Source: Nitrospirota bacterium
GTDB lineage: Bacteria > Nitrospirota > UBA9217
DNA: 64,000 nucleotides
Direction of reading: 5' to 3'
Assembly (NCBI GenBank): GCA_963754875.1
Contig: CAVWHO010000017.1
Location: forward strand, 96,001-160,000
The notes beneath the pieces are model-generated. The model ran no database searches and was not told the DNA's origin. It was given only the letters and a program-made list of their open reading frames with translations. The position numbers and the translations under genes are program-made. Position 1 is the stretch's first letter. Every line of letters begins with the position of its first letter. Positions 20,027-55,542 of the stretch are shown here, piece after piece.

Positions 20027-20103
<77 letters not shown>

Positions 20104-44099: not shown

Positions 44100-44131
44100 T
44101 AGGTGTTATGTGGAGCTCCACATAACACCTA
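44100..44131. repeat. Perfect 32-bp palindrome
   Basis: TAGGTGTTATGTGGAGCTCCACATAACACCTA is its own reverse complement. Confidence 0.97.
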
Positions 44132-44515
44132 TTATGGTGCGCCCGGCAGGGCGCGCTCACTTGGAGGTGTAAGTCCTCTACGGACCCTGATGACGGGAAC
44201 CGTTAGCCGAACCGCAAGGGCTGCCGCCGCGAGGCGGGGTCTGAAGGAAGCGGAACGCAAATCCCCGGCCCGAAGTACATGAAGCGCATACGAGGCAGCC
44301 GCGTCTGGGCGAGAAGGCCATAATATTCAAAGCCCGATAGTCATTCGGAAGACGTGGAAGTAGATGCGACGGGTATATGGGGAGAAAGTGGGTGCGCAAT
44401 ACCCGGGGAGGTCTGCAAGCTTGCTATGGCTACCACCGTCAAGAGACGGCGGGATGAGCTTGCAGAAGTCAGCCGAGGGCATACTAGTCGCTGCGCACAG
44501 CGATGAAGGCCCGAA

Positions 44516-45394
44516 CATGGAAGGACGGAGGGGTGCCGAAACCTCGATGGACGAAGCAGACGCGCGAAGGAAGGCTGAGATGCCAGAGGACTCCCGGAAG
44601 GTAGCGGGCGGAACCCGTAAGAATACGGCGAGGGAGCGTCAAGCGTCCGCGGCGGCAGAGGAGAACGCCCAGCCGGAAGCGACGAATCTCTTAGAGGAGG
44701 TATTGCGCCGTGAGAACCTGATAGCAGCCTTACATCGCGTCCAGTCGAACAAAGGAGCGCCGGGAGTAGACGGCATGACCGTTCTTGAACTCACGCCCTA
44801 CCTTAAGACGAACTGGCCGCGCATCCGGGAAGAGTTGCTGAGCGGACAGTACGACCCTGCGGCCGTCCTTCGGGTAGAAATCCCGAAGCCGGACGGAAAG
44901 GGAATGCGACTGCTCGGAATCCCCACCGTGCTCGATCGGTTCATCGAACAAGCAATATTGCAGGTACTCACCCCTATCTTCGATCCACAATTTAGCGAAA
45001 GCAGCTATGGTTTCCGCCGTGGACGGGGCTGTCACGGCGCAGTAAAAGCAGCTCGCGCCCATGTGGAAGCAGGCTACCGCTTTGTGGTGGACATGGACTT
45101 GGAAAAGTTCTTTGACCGCGTCAACCACGACGTACTTATGGTGCGGGTGGCCAGACGGGTCAAAGACAAGAGACTCCTCCGACTCATAGGCCGCTATTTG
45201 AGGGCAGGCATCATGATCGGAGGGATCGTTCAAGCCCACGAAGAAGGGACGCCACAAGGTAGCCCACTCTCGCCGCTTTTGTCTAATATCATCTTGGATG
45301 ATCTGGACAAGGAACTAGAGCGAAGAGGCCACCACTTCTGCCGGTACGCCGATGACTGTAATATCTACGTCAAGTCGAAGGCAGCCGGAGAACA
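44516..45394 (+). pseudogene. ltrA: Group II intron reverse transcriptase/maturase, 5' part (start uncertain)
   Basis: NKGAPGVDG, IPKPDG, RLLGIPT, SYGFR, DLEKFFD, GTPQGSPLSPLL, RYADD. Confidence 0.92.
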
Positions 45395-45586
45395 TGTTAG
45401 CGCCGGTCATGCCTGGACCCACCCGCGGCCAGATTTCGGACCCACTCACCGATTTTTGATCTACTGAGCAAACACCGGTTACCAGACCCACCCTCTTATC
45501 TTTCTATCTCCTCCCTTTCTATTTCTCATCGACAAGCGCATCATGTCTGTCCATATGTTCCTCATTGATCTCAAAGCGGAGGAAGT

Positions 45587-46003
45587 ATGGAGAAGACGTG
45601 CGCGTGCTGCAGCAAGACATTCATCCCATTGCCTACGGTACGCAACCAGCTGTACTGTTCGGAGACACAGTGTCAGAAGGCCAGGAAGAAACGATGGCAG
45701 AAGCGGAAGCTGATGACCGACGAAGCCTATCGAGAAAATCAAAGCGATGCCCGGAAAGCATGGGTCAAGAAGAACAGCGACTACTGGAAACGGTATCGGG
45801 AAAAGAATCCAGCCTACACAGAGCGCAATCGTCTTCTCCAAAGGGAGCGCAACCGGAGGAAGAGAGGGGCTCCAGTGATTGCAAAGATGGACGAGTTAAC
45901 CCCGCGAAAAACAATAGTTCCCGGACGATACAGGCTGGTTCCTGTGATTGCAAATATGGACGAGCTGATTGTGGAAATAGGCGTCATATCAGGGGTTTCG
46001 TAG
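45587..46003 (+). CDS. IS passenger: basic protein with N-terminal Cys motif
   Basis: GGAGG RBS; CACC...YCSETQC; duplicated VIA.MDEL. Confidence 0.7.
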   Translation: MEKTCACCSKTFIPLPTVRNQLYCSETQCQKARKKRWQKRKLMTDEAYRENQSDARKAWVKKNSDYWKRYREKNPAYTERNRLLQRERNRRKRGAPVIAKMDELTPRKTIVPGRYRLVPVIANMDELIVEIGVISGVS

Positions 46004-46100
46004 AGCAGCCGGTAAGCTCCTGATTGCAAAGAGATGACTTGATGGCTTTTCGTCATGCTGCCTGTTATGCTGGCCGTGCTTTTTAAGAGGAAGATCTCGT

Positions 46101-46973
46101 ATGCATGAAGCATTTCCCATAGAAGACCTTGCGGTATCGGCGATCGGCCGGAAGTACGCGGAACTTCGCATCGTAAAACCCCGGGCGGACAGGGTCATGG
46201 AGAAATCGATACGACAGTACGGCCAGATGCTTCCGACGATATGCGTCAGGTCCGGATTGGGCTACGAGATGATCGACGGGTTCAAGAGACTCAGGGCCTG
46301 CCAGCGGCTGGGAAGAACAACGCTTTCAGCGCGGATCCGGGAGGAGATGCCGGAACGCGTGTGCAAGGCCGCCGTTGTCCAGTTGAACCAGACGAGCATG
46401 TCCATAAGCGATCTGGAGGAGGCCATGGTGATTCAGTCCCTATATCGTAAGGACGGGATGAATCAGCCAGAGATCGCAGTTTTGTTCGGACGGGACAAGA
46501 GCTGGGTAAGCCGTCGGCTGTCCCTGATTGAGAGGCTTTCGGAAGAGGTTCGGAAGAACATTATGCTGGGACTGGTTTCGGTTGTAACGGGGAGGGAGTT
46601 GGCGCGGTTGCCGCGCGGCAACCAGGATGAAGCCTTGGCCGCTGTCGTCAAGCACTGGCTCAGCACCAGAGACGTGGCGAAGCTGACAAGCCATCTGTTG
46701 TCCCGCCCGTCATGGGAGTATGCGGTGATTCTCAAGAACCCCTGGGAGGTGCTGGATCTTGAGTCGAAACCATCGTCGTTCGATTTAAAAACGAGACTCC
46801 TGTCCATGCGGAAAAGCTGCCGGGCGGTATCAGATATCGCATCTACCTGTGGACGGCAGGAAGCGGAAAGACAGTCGGTCCTGATAGAGGGCGCCATCGC
46901 CGAGGCTCTTACGGCAGTAGAAAACTTAAGAGGCCTTATCCGCGCAAATGAGCAGGGAGTCAAGCAGTGTTGA
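46101..46973 (+). CDS. IS passenger: ParB/Srx N-terminal domain plus HTH protein
   Basis: SIRQYGQ..P, YEMIDGFKRLRA (GxxR), LEEAMVI..L, Q.EIA..FGRDKSWVSRRL.L. Confidence 0.85.
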   Translation: MHEAFPIEDLAVSAIGRKYAELRIVKPRADRVMEKSIRQYGQMLPTICVRSGLGYEMIDGFKRLRACQRLGRTTLSARIREEMPERVCKAAVVQLNQTSMSISDLEEAMVIQSLYRKDGMNQPEIAVLFGRDKSWVSRRLSLIERLSEEVRKNIMLGLVSVVTGRELARLPRGNQDEALAAVVKHWLSTRDVAKLTSHLLSRPSWEYAVILKNPWEVLDLESKPSSFDLKTRLLSMRKSCRAVSDIASTCGRQEAERQSVLIEGAIAEALTAVENLRGLIRANEQGVKQC

Positions 46974-48574
46974 TTAGGAGCCGCAAAGAACTGGAACATA
47001 AAGTGATCATCATGCATGCCGAAGGCTCGAGTATCCGCGAGCTCTCCCGGCGTTTCCATTTGGGTCGTAACACCATCCGAAGAATCCTCCGGGACCATAC
47101 GAGCCGTCGTGATCAAGGGCATGATATCCTGACAAAGCCCCCTGTTCGGACGAGCAAGCTGGATGTCTATGCTCCACTGATTAAAGAAACGCTTGAGAAA
47201 TACCCGACCATCACGGGCCTGCGGGTCTATGAAAAACTTAAGGACGCCGGCTATGCTGGCGGCATCACCATCGTGCGGGAACAGCTCAGGAAGCTGGGAG
47301 CAGTGAAAAGGGATCCGGTAATCCGGTTCGAAACGGGTCCAGCGCAGCAATCGCAAATGGATTGGAGCCCCTACACGATCCACTTCACGCGCACGGGCAA
47401 GATGACGGTCTTGTGCTTCTCCTATATCCTGGGCTACTCCCGGAGACAGTATATCGACTTCACCCTTCGTCGTGACTTCCACACTCTTATCCGTCGGCAT
47501 CAAGATGCCTTTCAGTACTATGGCGGGGTTGCAAGGGAGTGTCTTTACGATAACGAGAAGACCGTTGTGCTTCGGTGGGAAGCAGGACGACCGATCTTTA
47601 ACCCGGCGTTCGCGGATTTTATAACGTTCTATCGCTGCAAACCAATAGCCTGTCGACCGAGGACGCCCCAAACAAAAGGAAAAATAGAATCCCCTTTTAA
47701 ATATGTGGAATCCAACTTGCTGGGTGGAAGAGATTTCCAGGATATCGAAGACCTTCGTGCTACCGCCAGATGGTGGCTCAAGGAGAAGTCCGATCTGCAT
47801 ATCCATGACACCACCCGACGAGCGCCGATCGAGCTGTTTCAGGAAGAGAAGCAGAAGCTTCAGCCCCTCCCTCTTCATCCTTACGATACCTCCGAGGTTG
47901 CACTACGGGTCTGTGAAGGAGACGGCTTCATAGAGTTTGAAGTGAACTGGTACTCCGTGCCGCCCAAAAACATAGCCGACATCGTAACGCCTAAAGCGAC
48001 GGAACGGGAAGTGTTGATTTACAGTCCGGAGCTGGAGCTGATTGCCCGGCACGAAAGGCAGCCCGCGGGGAGCCGCAAGCGGATGGAGAACCCGGAGCAT
48101 TTTGTGACAAAGAAAATCCGCTATGGTCTGGAGCCTGTACGAGAGGCGTTTATCGCGCTGGGAGACGGCGCTGAAAGCTTCCTCGCAGGGCTTACAAACA
48201 AACAGCCACGGAACTGCGGGTTCCATGCCCGGTTCATCCTGCGGCTTAGAGAAGAGTATCAAAGCGAGGACATTAATAACGCCCTAAAGCACGCGGAGCG
48301 GTACCAGGCATACGAGGGTGGAGCCGTGGAGCGGATTTTAAAAGCCATGGCCACCCCCCGTACCCTGGAGTCTATCCGCAATGAGCATGCGCGTCAGGAA
48401 CTAGGGAAGACCCTGCCCAGAATCACCCAGCGGTCGTTGGATGAATACCAATCCTTGATGGGAGAAGAAAAAAACCACCATGAACAAAAAAACGACGGTG
48501 CCGGACGAGACGGTGACGAACATCAAGAAACATCTTGCGACTCTGAAGCTGACGGGAATACAGAAGGTACTTGA
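46967..48574 (+). CDS. istA: IS21 transposase
   Basis: N-terminal HTH; RFETGP..Q.QMDW, YDNEKT, KGKIE DDE motifs. Confidence 0.93.
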   Translation: MLIRSRKELEHKVIIMHAEGSSIRELSRRFHLGRNTIRRILRDHTSRRDQGHDILTKPPVRTSKLDVYAPLIKETLEKYPTITGLRVYEKLKDAGYAGGITIVREQLRKLGAVKRDPVIRFETGPAQQSQMDWSPYTIHFTRTGKMTVLCFSYILGYSRRQYIDFTLRRDFHTLIRRHQDAFQYYGGVARECLYDNEKTVVLRWEAGRPIFNPAFADFITFYRCKPIACRPRTPQTKGKIESPFKYVESNLLGGRDFQDIEDLRATARWWLKEKSDLHIHDTTRRAPIELFQEEKQKLQPLPLHPYDTSEVALRVCEGDGFIEFEVNWYSVPPKNIADIVTPKATEREVLIYSPELELIARHERQPAGSRKRMENPEHFVTKKIRYGLEPVREAFIALGDGAESFLAGLTNKQPRNCGFHARFILRLREEYQSEDINNALKHAERYQAYEGGAVERILKAMATPRTLESIRNEHARQELGKTLPRITQRSLDEYQSLMGEEKNHHEQKNDGAGRDGDEHQETSCDSEADGNTEGT

Positions 48575-49286
48575 CGATGAACTGACCAAGGCAACGGCGA
48601 AGCATCTGCCTCCCACCGAACTCCTGGAGCGGGTGCTCTCGGTAGAAGCCCATGCCCGTGTCGAACGAAGGATCGAACGGAGGATCAGGGAAGCAAAGCT
48701 CTCGGAACGAAAGCTTCTTGCCGACTTCGACTTCGTCTTCCAGACCGGCGTGGACAAGGCGCAGATCATGGAGCTGGCCAAGCTGGACTTCGTGGGCCGC
48801 AGGCAGGGGCTGGTTATGGCGGGCAACTCGGGAACTGGCAAGAGCCATCTTGCCAAGGCGCTTCTTCTCATCGGTTGCACCAAGCTCTATCGCTGCCGCT
48901 ACACCACCGCGGCCGACATGCTGGTCGACCTTATGTCCGGCCTCGCCGACAACAGCCTTCCGAAGCGGCTCAAAGAGTATACCGTTCCTGATATCCTTTT
49001 TATCGATGAACTGGGGTTCGATCGTCTTGAGCAGTATGATGCCAGGAACGCATCCCTCTTCTTCAAGGTCATCGACGGCCGGTACTGCAAGGGATCCACG
49101 CTCATCACTACGAATATCGATTTTAAAGAACTCGGAGATTACCTGGGCGACCCCGTGGTCACAACTGCTATCGTGGACCGCATGGTGCACCACTCCGTCA
49201 TCATCAATATCAAGGGGCCGAGCTACCGTATGCACGAATCAAAGAAGCTCAACTCAAAAGTAAAGAAACCCTCCGAATCAAAGTAA
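48480..49286 (+). CDS. istB: IS21 helper AAA+ ATPase
   Basis: GNSGTGKSHLA, LFIDELG, ITTN, AIVDRMVHH, G.SYR. Confidence 0.95.
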   Translation: MNKKTTVPDETVTNIKKHLATLKLTGIQKVLDDELTKATAKHLPPTELLERVLSVEAHARVERRIERRIREAKLSERKLLADFDFVFQTGVDKAQIMELAKLDFVGRRQGLVMAGNSGTGKSHLAKALLLIGCTKLYRCRYTTAADMLVDLMSGLADNSLPKRLKEYTVPDILFIDELGFDRLEQYDARNASLFFKVIDGRYCKGSTLITTNIDFKELGDYLGDPVVTTAIVDRMVHHSVIINIKGPSYRMHESKKLNSKVKKPSESK

Positions 49287-49542
49287 AACCCTCAAACGCA
49301 ATCCGTCCGTTCTTCCTCTACATGCACCAACACACAACCCTCTGCGCTCAATCTTTACGCTCTAATGCTCATAAAAAAATCCAACTTCACAAGAAATATC
49401 TCTGACAAAAGGTAGAATCGAAATCTAGACGGGTCTTCAAACCGGCGCGGATCCTATCGGTTAATCAAAATCACGCAACTTCAAGTGGGTCCAGCAAAAC
49501 CGCTGAGGTGGGTCCGTTTCAAGCCGGTGGTAGCAGAGAACA

Positions 49543-50098
49543 GGTGATGCAGTCAATCACCCGGTTTCTTGCAAAGAAGCTACGCTTGACGGTTAACAAA
49601 GAAAAGAGCGCGGTAGACCGTCCTTGGAACCGCAAGTTCCTCGGTTACACCATGACATTGCATCGTAGCCCGAAACTCAAGGTGTCGCCGAAAAGCATCA
49701 AGAGAGCCAAGGCGCGTGTTAAGGAGATCACCCGAAAGGGACGGGGACGCTCACTGCCGAAGGTGATTGCCGAACTTACGAAGTACCTTCGGGGATGGGT
49801 AAATTACTTCCGGCTGTCCCAAGTGAAGATCGCTTTCGAGGAACTGGATCAATGGATACGGCGGAAACTGCGCTGTGTCCTCTGGCGACAATGGAAGAAG
49901 CCGCGAACCAGAGCCAAGAAACTTATCCAGCTAGGGATAGAAAAGGTAAGAGCTTTTGCCTCAGCCTACAATGGCCGGGGTCCATGGTGGAACGCCGGCG
50001 CGTCACATATGAACGCTGCGGTAACCGCCAAAGGGCTACAACAACAGGGACTCATGAGTCTTCTCACAGAGCATCGACGCTTTACAGACCTTGCGTGA
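49543..50098 (+). pseudogene. ltrA: Group II intron RT, 3' part (thumb/maturase X; no endonuclease domain)
   Basis: LRLTVNKEKS, FLGY, LRGWVNYF, LDQWIRRKLR; removing the IS restores ...AAGEQVMQS... Confidence 0.92.
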
Positions 50099-50720
50099 AC
50101 CGCCGTATGCCGAACGGCACGTACGTGTGGTGTGAGAGGCTGGGGCCGGAAGGCCCCCGCCTACTCGATTGAAGTTCCCCGTTATGTGAATCGTTTGCAT
50201 TAAATCCTTTATTAGTGCCTATTCTGCGAGAATTTACTCCACATAATAATGCCGCTGTCTTCGATATCCTCTTCATTGGAACCAATCAAATGAGGAGGTG
50301 CATATGGTCACGTCACAAGAGGAATGGAATTTGAATTGCACTGAATACTGTGCGATTTAAGCAGTCCCGTGAGTGTCTTTCTTCTTTTGAACCCGCTTAC
50401 ACGGTGACAATCTAAAATACCTGATCAAACAAAGAAACAACATTGTATACTGCTTTGATTCGTCGTAAGAGCCTCCGTTATGTGAAGTAAATTGTTAGAA
50501 AACCGCTGAATTTCCTTTGCTCACGACATTTGCTTCACATAACGGGGAACTTCACATAATAGGTGAACTTGAGAAAATCCAGTGTGCTAAAAAATATCAA
50601 AAAAGGCAAAATAGACGTAATTGATACAATCAATACATGATGGATAACACCTCGATTATCAAAGCAAAACGGGAAACCAGGCTTTAATCAAGGGTCTCTA
50701 AAAAATGGCTTGTTGTCGCG

Positions 50721-50830
50721 CATAACCCGAAGGTCGTCTGTTCAAATCCGGCCCCCGTGCCAATCAATACAAAGGGTTACAGCACATGCTGTAACCCTTT
50801 GCTATCCCAGTGGGCCGGTAATGGGCCGGT
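50721..50830 (+). repeat. att-like junction: tRNA-fMet 3' part plus variant terminator plus TGGGCCGGT repeat
   Basis: CATAACCCGAAGGTCGTCTGTTCAAATCCGGCCCCCG; AAAGGGTTACAGC-ACAT-GCTGTAACCCTTT. Confidence 0.85.
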
Positions 50831-51995: not shown

Positions 51996-54691
51996 ATGAA
52001 CCTGAACCAGGAAATGTTGTCAGTAATCCTGCCGCATGGAGCTATACGGCTGGAATGGGCAGAGGCCCAGGAAGAAGTCAGTAAGGACCAGGAACTTCTC
52101 CAGCGGGAAATATTTCGGCGATTTGCCGACCATCCCGATGGCGCATTTCTTTTTCTCGGATTCTCCAATAAATCAGTTCCCCTTTCTCCTTCCCTCGATT
52201 ATTGGCGCAACGTATGCGGACTCTTCGCCAGGAAACTCGCTCACACTCCAAATCTGGAAATCCTTCGTCATAAGGCCATCGTCGAAATCAGCGAAGAAGA
52301 ATTAAACCATGTCCTTGCATCAGCGCCGCTGATGACTGGCGCTGAGTATTTGACCAGGGTCGTTATCGATGATCTTTGGCAGCGGCTTCATGACGAATTC
52401 AGCAAGGAGATCCAAAAGACAAAAGAGAGCGTCGAGGAGTTTATCCGGGCATACAGTCCCGATATCCATCTCATCGGCCGGGTGTTTTTCCACCTCGTGG
52501 AGAGCAAAAAAGATGATTACCCTTTTGCGTTTCTGGCTACGTATTCACCGGGACTGAACAGACAGGGCAAATCGCAGCATCTTCCCCTGAGACAAGCCCT
52601 GCAGGAATACGACAGGGACGGGAAAAAGCTTCTTGACCTCCTCGTGACGGTGCATCGAGCTGCCAAAGAAAGCGCCCTGGTGGCCCAGCTGCTTGAGAGC
52701 GGCGAACTGTTCCATCCGCTCGCCTGGACGGCTAAGGAAGCATACACCTTCCTCCGGGAGATTCCGATCTACGAACAAGCGGGAATATTGTGCCGCATTC
52801 CCGACTGGTGGAAGCGCGGCGCATCAAGTTTACAGGTCAATATATCCCTGGGAGGCCGCCAACCCTCAACGGTAGGCATGGATGCCCTGCTCAGTTTTGA
52901 CATAGACCTGCATCTTGAGGGTGAGCAGATATCCTATGAAGAGGCCAAACGGCTCATTGATGCGTCCGAAGGGCTTGCCTTGATCAAAAACCGTTGGATC
53001 GCCGTGGACCATGAAAAGCTGCGCCAGACCCTCGAAGCCTACGAAAAGCGCAAGCTCCCTCGCCAGTAGTGGAGGGTTGAGCTTTCGCGAGGCATTGCGG
53101 TTCGAACTGAATCCGAAGAGCTTTCTGGACCTTCCCGATAATGATTCAAGCGTGGTCATCACAAACGGACAATGGATGGAGTCGGTCATGGCGCGCATGC
53201 TCCACCCCGAAGCCATAGCGCCCGTACAGATGGAAACATCCTTCAAGGCGAAATTGCGGCCTTATCAGCAGAGAGGAGTAGCCTGGCTTTCGTTCCTCCA
53301 TTCCCTCAGATTCGGCATGTGCCTTGCCGATGACATGGGACTCGGTAAGACCGTGCAGGTTTTGGCGATGCTGCGAGAGTTTGAAATCGAATGGCGAAAA
53401 AGGGGCCAGCCTGCTTGTGGTTCCTGCATCTTTGCTCTCTAACTGGGCTGCTGAGATCGGGAAATTCACTCCTGAACTGTCATTCGCCATTGCTCATCCC
53501 TCCGGAAAGGATGAGACGGGCGAGATGCCGAAAGAAAGGAAAGAGATAGACAGGCTTGATCTCGTGATCACGACGTATTCGCTGGTGCAGAGATACGAAT
53601 TGCTGCAAACATACGAGTGGAAGTATGTGATCCTCGATGAGGCTCAGGCTATCAAAAATCCCGGGACGAAGCAAACGAAAGCGGTAAAAAAACTAATAGC
53701 AATAAACAGGATCGTCATGACCGGGACCCCGGTCGAAAACCGGCTGTCTGACCTCTGGTCGATCTTTGATTTCATCAACCCCGGACTCCTCGGCAGCAGC
53801 CAGGAGTTCAGTCGATTTGCCAAGAACTTGAATAAGGACCCCGAAGGATATGCACGTCTCAGGAAAGTCATCGGTCCCTATATCCTCCGGAGGCTAAAGA
53901 CCGATAAATCTGTTATTTCCGACTTGCCGGAAAAGGTCGAGATGAAGACCTGGTCGTACCTCGGGAAAAAACAGGCCGTCTTGTATCAGAAACTGGTCGA
54001 CGACCTTCGCAGGTCCGTTGAAAATGTCGAGGGAATTCAGCGGAAAGGAATTATTCTGAGTTCACTTATGAAATTCAAGCAGATATGCAATCATCCGGAC
54101 CAATACCTTGGGACTGGTTCCTTTGACGAAAAAGAAAGCGGCAAGTTCGGTCGACTGCGGGAAATCTGCGAGACCATCTATGAAAAGCGGGAACGGGTTC
54201 TCGTTTTCACCCAGTTCCGGGAGATGACTGAACCGCTCGCCGGCTTCTTGAGCACGTTGTTCGGTCATCAGGGCTTGGTATTGCACGGCGGTACGCCTGT
54301 AGGCAAGAGAAAGGAAATCGTGGCTCGTTTTCAGGACGAAGAATATGTTCCCTTCATGGTCCTGTCGCTAAAAGCCGGCGGTGTTGGACTCAATCTGACC
54401 GCCGCAAATCATGTCGTTCATTTCGACCGCTGGTGGAACCCGGCCGTCGAGAACCAGGCCACGGACCGGGCTTTCCGAATCGGCCAGAAGAAGAACGTGG
54501 TCGTGCACAAGTTTATTACTAAGGGTACGGTCGAGGAAAAGATAGACCAAATGATCGAGGGAAAGTTGAAACTGTCTAACGATGTGGTTCAGGCCGGCAG
54601 CGAGGCATGGATCACGGAAATGGACAATGACGAGCTGATGAGATATGTTTACGTTGACGCTGTGATGATAATGAGAAAGGGATTGCAATGA
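51996..54691 (+). pseudogene. SNF2-family helicase, broken by frameshifts
   Basis: [40 protein letters not shown] and QATDRAFRIGQ spread over three frames. Confidence 0.88.
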
Positions 54692-55542
54692 GCTGGAGTT
54701 TTCCTCGATATGTGGCTAAAGCCGAGAAACAGGCACGGGCGGCAAAAAAACTTGAACAGCTGAAGAAAAAGCGGGACGTGAGGCCGGTTATTATTCAGGG
54801 CAGCGCTATTGCGCGCACCTGGTGGGGCAAATCCTGGAACCGAAACCTGGAGCAGTATGCGGACTACAGCAACCGTATTGGAAGGGGACGCAGTTATGTA
54901 CGCCACGGCGCCGTTCTGGACCTTCAGATTAACGCCGGCGAGATCAAGGCGCTCGTGCAAGGTTCGAGGTCCAAGCCCTATGAGATACTTATTAAGATCG
55001 GGAAACTCGGCAAAAATACCTGGCAGCAGATATCGTCATCCTGTTCCGGGATGCTCGACTCCGTATCGGAACTTCTTTCGGGAAATTTTCCAAAAGAGCT
55101 CGGTGAATTGTTTCTGCAGCGCGATGCAGGCCTTTTCCCGTCGCCAAAGGAAATTGCCTTCGAGTGTTCCTGCCCTGACTGGGCGAGCATGTGCAAACAT
55201 GTGGCGGCAACGCTGTATGGTGTCGGCGCGCGGCTCGATGAAGACGCCACGCTCTTTTTCACGCTTCGCGGCGTTGATATGACCGATCTCATAACCCGGA
55301 CCGCTTCAGCCAAGGCTGAGAGCATGCTCGAAAAGGCAGCGAAGAAAAGTTCTCGGATTATCGATGATACGGACCTGTCCGCGCTTTTTGGCATAGAGCT
55401 GACAAATATTGATAAACCGGCGACTATGGCTGTCGATGTAAGGCCTGTGAAAAAAACAGTGCGCGTGAAAGCTGCAAAAAGCATGGTGAAAGCAAAGAGG
55501 AATATCTCCGAAGAGAAAGAAAAGAAAGGCATCAGACAGTAA
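54688..55542 (+). CDS. SWIM zinc-finger protein (SNF2 partner)
   Basis: WWGKSW, RGRSY, VQGS, CSCPDWA.MCKHVAA. Confidence 0.9.
   Translation: MSWSFPRYVAKAEKQARAAKKLEQLKKKRDVRPVIIQGSAIARTWWGKSWNRNLEQYADYSNRIGRGRSYVRHGAVLDLQINAGEIKALVQGSRSKPYEILIKIGKLGKNTWQQISSSCSGMLDSVSELLSGNFPKELGELFLQRDAGLFPSPKEIAFECSCPDWASMCKHVAATLYGVGARLDEDATLFFTLRGVDMTDLITRTASAKAESMLEKAAKKSSRIIDDTDLSALFGIELTNIDKPATMAVDVRPVKKTVRVKAAKSMVKAKRNISEEKEKKGIRQ

Follow-up and report, generated by a model that had tools for sequence, protein, structure and literature searches.

Genes of the element

The DNA analysed here (the window) is a 64,000-nucleotide stretch of a Nitrospirota bacterium (contig CAVWHO010000017.1, positions 96,001 to 160,000, forward strand) and carries a transposon of the IS21 type in which a zinc-finger leader gene (open reading frame 1, ORF1) and a gene for a ParB-like protein (parB) precede the transposase gene istA and its helper istB. 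An earlier note, made from the window alone, had described these four reading frames, including a parB stop overlapping the istA start, and all were recovered as described. Together the four genes fill the element.

45395..49535: IS21-type element, 4141 bp, with a TG start, a CA end and a target duplication on both sides
45587..46003, + strand: ORF1, basic Cys4 zinc-finger leader of 138 amino acids (aa); C5, C8, C24 and C29 invariant
46101..46973, + strand: parB, ParB-like protein of 290 aa, with a ParB/Srx fold containing DGFKR, a helix-turn-helix domain and a helical C-terminal part
46967..48574, + strand: istA, DDE transposase of 535 aa (NF033546, 254 bits, cut-off 160; IS5376 IstA, E=6e-44)
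48480..49286, + strand: istB, AAA+ helper ATPase of 268 aa (NF038214, 224.8 bits, cut-off 200; PF01695, E=2e-60)

The IstA catalytic residues D132, D195 and E241 are invariant in 43 sequences, and both Walker A and Walker B motifs were found in IstB. The parB stop (46971-46973) overlaps the istA start at either GTG 46967 or TTG 46970, and an overlapping or abutting arrangement is observed in 39 of 42 elements.

For the ParB-like protein, the HTH_ParB profile scores above its cut-off and ParB_N slightly below, the NCBIfam ParB model falls below its cut-off (50.9 bits, 58.45 required), and comparison with 6sdk gives E=6e-18, with a Foldseek E of 5e-12. The Box II GxxR motif is retained throughout (G60 and R63 in 149 of the 149 representatives covering the site), and Box III (ENxxR) keeps Asn96 in 149 of 150, with Leu instead of Glu in 116 and a variable residue at the Arg position. 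The position of the catalytic Glu in GERRxR is occupied by Phe in 144 of 149. In ParB this Glu is needed for hydrolysis and not for binding, and KorB is also without it (PMC11790492); the ParB/Srx-type fold also binds ATP or GTP, unpredictably, such that nucleotide preference is unreadable from sequence (PMC12704722). The earlier note had pointed to ParB N-domains as clamps that bind cytidine triphosphate (CTP) and have a GxxR motif: the motif (GFKR) and the Box III Asn are indeed kept, while a CTP clamp stays a prediction with Phe in place of Glu, the nucleotide used probably being CTP. The ParA-binding peptide LG(R/K)GL was found in none of 150 ParB-like representatives, and parA in none of the elements mapped.

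The window ORF1 protein gave no family match in Pfam, NCBIfam or PHROG. In its model, long basic helices accompany a Cys4 knuckle and a C-terminal beta hairpin; a fold search returned nothing significant (a match to YacG was weak at E=2.6), nor a fold match to KorA among the rows returned, and a phage HNH endonuclease family matches 29 of 72 ORF1 members weakly.

Association of parB and the leader with IstA and IstB

If the two upstream genes were casual cargo, close IstA homologues would usually lack them, and the earlier note had accordingly called for their co-occurrence and order to be examined. The opposite was observed. Among a first IstA-selected set of 16 genome loci (46-69% identity, five from one genome), parB is present in 15 of 15 with upstream DNA and ORF1 in 13 of 13 reaching far enough. 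For a second such set the best 80 were taken from at least 586 metagenome loci and reduced to 67 by dropping 5 duplicates and 8 that were too short; parB lies immediately upstream of istA in 66, the exception being a 5′-truncated istA, and a leader precedes parB in all 56 of these 66 that are long enough (31 type 1, 23 type 2 and 2 other, with 10 too short). Conversely, in the best 80 of 220 parB loci (64 distinct, 2 too short) istA follows parB in 59 of 62, and the other three are an insertion-split istA, a truncated parB and a leader-parB-winged-helix arrangement at a contig end. Distant IS21 loci (L124-L150, 25-36% IstA identity) carried parB in 0 of 27 examined; one of them, L124, has a leader and winged helix without parB. 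In a sample of the phylum, 47 of 301 genomes contain an IS21-type IstA and two contain close relatives, a complete element with a type-2 leader (G107) and a truncated remnant without parB (G261). In the latter, a retron-like reverse transcriptase gene, its type judged by eye, stands in place of the 5′ part of the close IstA relative (L151:4298-5302).

An IstA tree (96 rows, FastTree) places the window protein in a clade of 56 rows (SH-like support 98), of which 54 have parB, one is truncated and one is too short; since most rows of this clade were found via ParB or ORF1, the tree gives relationships and not frequency. A second ParB-bearing IstA clade (11 rows, 24-27% identity) and a winged-helix clade stand apart. 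The ParB, IstA and IstB trees agree over 43 elements (Spearman 0.90, 0.91 and 0.93), with 2 of 14 strong ParB splits in conflict with IstA, and the median ratio of nonsynonymous to synonymous substitution rates (dN/dS) is 0.23 for ORF1 before the boxes (63 pairs), 0.16 for parB, 0.16 for istA and 0.12 for istB. A ParB profile at E<=1e-30 yields 617 clusters at 50% identity, and records of the clade are labelled with more than ten phyla. Relatives of the element are active, as indicated by near-identical multiple copies (15 of 4821 bp in one genome, five in another). These sequence comparisons show that the four genes move as a unit and support the view that parB and the leader are dedicated parts of the element, in agreement with the earlier note. 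In some relatives a fifth gene follows istB (L019:8146-8664, L033:8190-8600 and others) and encodes either a CHC2 zinc finger or a winged helix of the HTH_36 type, which in other clades also lies ahead of istA.

A conserved palindrome inside parB

46607..46622: parS-like perfect palindrome GTTGCCGCGCGGCAAC, 16 bp (18 bp with flanks), inside parB

This is the only perfect palindrome of at least 12 bp in the element (46606-46623), and its pattern occurs once in the 4.3-Mb host genome, within the element. When symmetry was scored over 81 distinct parB genes, the palindrome ranked top of 582 positions with 6.98 of 8 pairs (next 3.78, median 2.07): 38 genes score 8/8, 14 score 7/8 and 25 score 6/8, and the 4 rows that were misaligned in this run gave 7-8 of 8 in a separate scan. 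Variants alter both arms as well as the protein (arms GTTGCC, GTTGGC, GTTTAT and TGTGCC), and wherever the site encodes Pro-Arg the pair of third positions free to vary is complementary (27 of 27: GC 18, AT 7, CG 2). The palindrome was found in 57 of the 66 metagenome loci, a further 4 being too short and 1 a spurious match. At the level of sequence, these patterns demonstrate a palindrome kept by selection. It lies 1.2 and 2.9 kb from the element ends and 583 bp from the promoter predicted below.

Three boxes and a predicted promoter

45877..45893, + strand: box 1 (GATTGCAAAGATGGACG), inside ORF1, read as IAKMD
45946..45962, + strand: box 2, inside ORF1, 69 bp past box 1
46022..46038, + strand: box 3, non-coding, 76 bp past box 2, just upstream of the predicted -35 position
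46063..46071, + strand: predicted extended -10 (TGnTATGCT) of a parB-istA-istB promoter, 42 nt after the TTG of box 3 (prediction only)

The motif TTGCAAA(G/T)A recurs in the window at 45879, 45948 and 46024. Among 85 distinct type-1 leaders, 82 have at least one box and 68 the full triad, with spacings of 81, 78 or 69 bp and then mostly 67-80 bp; of the 68 third boxes, 53 are out of frame and 48 lie past the leader stop. Within boxes 1 and 2 the Ala codon is GCA in 123 of 125 cases (background 0.19), a preference to which the search pattern itself contributes in part, and the Asp codon, at a position mostly outside that pattern, is GAC in 118 of 129 (background 0.52). In two loci (L009 and L011) all three boxes are altered together. 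A TAnnnT sequence lies 40-43 nt past box 3 in 53 of 68 triads; at this distance from boxes 1 and 2 it occurs in 1 of 68, and control windows have it in 0-15. Comparisons of this kind show that the three boxes are kept by selection, the last of them beside a promoter-like site. Neither the palindrome nor the boxes had been described in the earlier note.

Box sequence tracks the leader type and not ParB. Type-2 leaders, ahead of the same ParB family, have different boxes, TT(C/T)AAGA(G/T/C)G, ~69 bp apart (three matches at this spacing in 8 and two in 7 of 17 distinct loci), and a third box sequence with 69/69-bp spacing is found at L198. At one locus (G107, L152:390-450) a type-1 box is left upstream of a type-2 leader and is likely a scar of leader exchange.

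The leader in other mobile elements

The best 80 of 321 ORF1 loci (73 distinct) were surveyed for the genes that follow. ORF1 is succeeded by parB-istA in 25 of the 73 (2 via a winged helix, and 4 with a CHC2 finger after istB), by parB only in 4 (one weak), by winged helix-istA-istB in 8, by istA-istB directly in 2, by a large serine recombinase in 22 (ParB/RepB genes next in 18 of these), by a winged helix and tyrosine recombinases in 4 and by a winged helix only in 1, with 6 loci too short and 1 unresolved. Annotated plasmid records and 5 of 7 viral contigs give the same picture, and in recombinase elements the shared unit has ORF1 at its left edge. The leader, the Cys protein that the earlier note suggested as a dedicated factor and that precedes parB in 56 of 56 metagenome loci, is not specific to IS21. 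The box triad and promoter position are common to the IS21, serine- and tyrosine-recombinase elements led by ORF1, and as ORF1 is the sole element-encoded protein common to all box-bearing elements, we infer that it reads the boxes.

Downstream of the serine recombinase elements (L065-L118) there is often a type I methylase gene or a conserved unnamed 456-aa gene. In an Acidobacteria-labelled clade (L201-L228) the leader consists of two zinc-finger frames whose junction is a stretch of 6-7 T in 14 of 15 loci examined, a possible programmed frameshift.

Proposed control of the parB-istA-istB operon

The genes and cis elements suggest an intact IS21-type transposon of a large clade, with a two-part control module ahead of the IstA/IstB engine in which a clamp on the palindrome and a leader on the boxes would jointly set parB-istA-istB expression; we give this reading a probability of roughly 0.5. 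A ParB-like dimer very probably uses the palindrome within parB as its loading site and, as a nucleotide-bound clamp, slides along the element. With somewhat less assurance, the zinc-finger leader would bind the three boxes. The clamp would then reach the leader-bound promoter ~580 bp upstream and switch the translationally coupled operon, either as in BisD/BisC (activation, feedback and bursts in few cells) or as in KorB/KorA (repression, with KorA locking KorB). The place of box 3 upstream of a poor -35 slightly favours activation.

A number of observations weigh against joint control. The same ParB clade is preceded by at least four exchanged leader subfamilies, and one locus (L199) has parB but no zinc-finger leader; since leaders are swapped before one ParB clade and function elsewhere without that ParB, a specific leader-ParB contact is not required, and the two may act independently. 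A host factor could also recognise the boxes, or they could be recognised as RNA. Seventeen of the 85 type-1 leaders are without the full triad, the Acidobacteria-labelled clade and several type-3 leaders yielded no triad, and the -35 signal is weak (a mean of fewer than 2 of 6 matches). The palindrome was not found by scan in 4 of 66 metagenome loci with long upstream DNA, its 4 central bases are asymmetric in the Acidobacteria-labelled clade, and the counts given above are overstated inasmuch as related sequences are not independent.

A wider claim, that a ParB/parS sliding-clamp switch operates in an insertion sequence and that leader, boxes and promoter form a portable ignition cassette across three recombination chemistries, is tentative and on balance doubtful. 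If so, unrelated mobile elements could be turned on in trans by a single diffusible leader protein, and transposition would become bistable or nucleotide-sensing through the clamp.

Alternative roles for the extra genes

Instead of switching the operon, the ParB clamp might act on the reaction itself, spreading from the palindrome over the 4-kb element to license or block end pairing, or to clear IstB from the element and the flanking DNA (self-immunity), and leaving the promoter to the leader alone. ParB is associated more closely with IstA/IstB than with the leader, the stop/start overlap suggests a fixed stoichiometry with IstA, the distances from palindrome to ends are inside the reported clamp range, and target immunity in IS21 is an open question (PMC11208146). 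This possibility is nevertheless somewhat unlikely, as IstA and IstB suffice for two-gene IS21 integration in vitro (PMC10122671) and the orphan ParB clamps on mobile DNA in the cited literature are gene regulators. It would fit ParB/parS as a segregation device, and the replication-flavoured genes of relatives (CHC2 primase-type zinc finger, HTH_36 winged helix), if the extra genes maintained, segregated or replicated an excised circle; with neither parA in the mapped elements nor an LG(R/K)GL peptide, we consider this improbable. No abutted-end junction was seen in the loci examined, by a pattern-based search of assemblies that would rarely show one, and the box spacing of 69-81 bp is unlike that of iterons (~20 bp).

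That ParB or the leader picks target sites is less probable again. The window copy did insert in another mobile element, and in one genome (G301) 3 of ~14 insertion events fall in CRISPR arrays, which make up ~0.6% of the genome (~70 kb, 935 repeats, of 12.5 Mb); yet this excess comes from a single genome and could be explained by tolerated sites, no consensus emerges from the 9 duplications (6-8 bp) that are intact among 15 copies, at least 3 copies lie inside long open frames, and the palindrome is nowhere else in the host genome. Of the roles put forward in the earlier note, regulation draws sequence support from the cis sites and promoter geometry, targeting little and circle maintenance none here. 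Casual cargo with no part in the life cycle is very improbable: distant IS21 elements are indeed mostly without both genes (29 loci at 25-36% IstA identity, none with parB and only L124 with a leader), but within the clade no intact loss was observed (the exceptions, L123 and L282, have 5′-truncated istA), and congruent trees, dN/dS of 0.16-0.23, coupled frames and selected cis sites all argue against it.

Relation to known systems

The element shares with canonical IS21 (IS21, IS5376; PMC10122671, PMC11208146) the overlapping pair of DDE IstA and AAA+ IstB, TG..CA ends with two internal repeats each, and a short duplication without a clear target sequence. It differs in its length of 4.1 kb, two more conserved genes, a parS-like site and a triple-box promoter module, in an IstA that falls in its own clade, and in duplications of 7 bp here and 6-8 bp in relatives versus 5 bp for IS5376; for IS21 elements of Paracoccus, duplications of 7-8 bp are listed (PMC3281130). 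The ends fit the definition of IS21 termini (PMC10122671), in which each inverted repeat finishes in CA and contains two or more direct repeats, and as four conserved genes rather than two reading frames lie inside them, we file the element as a variant with an IS21 core.

A close parallel in control is BisD/BisC of ICEclc, an integrative and conjugative element (ICE; PMC12409273), in which an orphan ParB-like protein, BisD, loads at palindromic bisS sites inside genes and activates BisC-bound promoters; a second protein at promoter boxes and control of mobility genes would be shared by the present element. The ICE system spans tens of kb and is experimentally tested, whereas here the distance is ~0.6 kb and the engine a DDE transposase. 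KorB of RK2 partitions with IncC and has a ParA-binding peptide (PMC11790492), which is lacking here, and ORF1 is a zinc finger. Chromosomal ParB/Spo0J and Noc share the ParB/Srx fold with a helix-turn-helix and a 16-bp palindromic site, but GERR is GFKR here, ENxxR is LNxxS, and neither ParA nor a ParA-binding motif is present. In the serine recombinase-ParB-RepB and tandem tyrosine recombinase elements the left edge is likewise formed by a leader of the ORF1 family, the three boxes and a promoter in the same position, but they are of unrelated chemistry with a ParB of another family, in whose genes no conserved 16-bp palindrome was found under the criteria used (16 loci).

Our literature search found no description of a ParB-bearing IS21 class, the available part of PMC11208146 being without mention of ParB and PMC13139386, PMC3281130 and PMC7371123 having no bearing on the class, and no paper on ORF1-led serine/tyrosine recombinase elements, which are known from annotated plasmid records. 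The element is a real and widespread variant of IS21 that is apparently undescribed. IS21 is the structural model of ATPase-assisted transposition and has been described as a two-gene system; ParB-type long-range control would extend from plasmids and ICEs to an insertion sequence, and the restraint or timing of IS21 activity, with target immunity as one aspect, would become accessible to study. The occurrence of the leader cassette with three recombination chemistries suggests that mobile elements of unrelated kinds share a layer of control. A small element with exactly predicted sites also makes silent-mutation tests cheap.

Boundaries, insertion site and surroundings

45388..45394, + strand: target duplication GAGAACA, left copy (single copy at the empty site on C18)
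49536..49542, + strand: target duplication GAGAACA, right copy
45395..45448, + strand: left end, TG terminus and two GGACCCAC repeats (45415, 45438); similar repeats at the ends of relatives
49482..49535, - strand: right end, two GGACCCAC repeats (49485, 49508) and CA terminus
44137..50169, + strand: host group II intron, its reverse transcriptase gene split by the element (TIGR04416 in both halves; Rfam RF02001, RF01998)

The size and 7-bp duplication given in the earlier note were confirmed, 7 nt being the only one of the duplication lengths tried (4-11 nt) to match (GAGAACA at 45388 and 49536), while its terminal inverted repeats proved imperfect (9/13, 18/30 and 29/54 matches, ungapped). 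The conserved feature of the ends is the pair of GGACCCAC repeats, which are likely IstA sites. Removing the element and one repeat from the sequence opens the reverse transcriptase frame for 477 codons with a single, terminal stop, in line with the earlier note. The genome also has an empty site: the intron copy on C18 is uninterrupted, 99.8% identical and has a single GAGAACA. A contig of run X4, joining 45387 to 49536 without the element, is a second witness. The element is present in one copy in the host genome, and its intact frames and duplication imply recent insertion. Run X3 contains two contigs (45395-46134 and 46105-49536) of ~90% identity to the element, the second continuing into other DNA past the right end. 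Insertions of the 4821-bp relative into the CRISPR arrays of G301 are seen at L022, L031 and L023/L027, two of them within repeats, and crossed duplications at L019/L034 and L023/L027 suggest recombination between copies.

The host intron has two further copies in the genome, the uninterrupted one on C18 and one on C20, which is broken elsewhere by a different element of ~1.15 kb. A hairpin lies just upstream of all three copies (44100-44136 in the window, C18 and C20), two with a T run, a placement that we take to be that of class IIC introns. Directly 3′ of the intron, window positions 50170-50554 contain a perfect 21-bp inverted repeat and more GTTATGTG-type repeats, related to the hairpin upstream of the intron. 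Just past the intron, a near-copy of the 3′ part of tRNA-Met (50707-50762) lies 30 kb downstream of tRNA-Met itself (20027-20103), and the two may bound an integrated region. Further downstream (51996-55542) are a two-frame helicase gene and a second gene, presumably SNF2-type and SWIM-finger-like, respectively, by their motifs.

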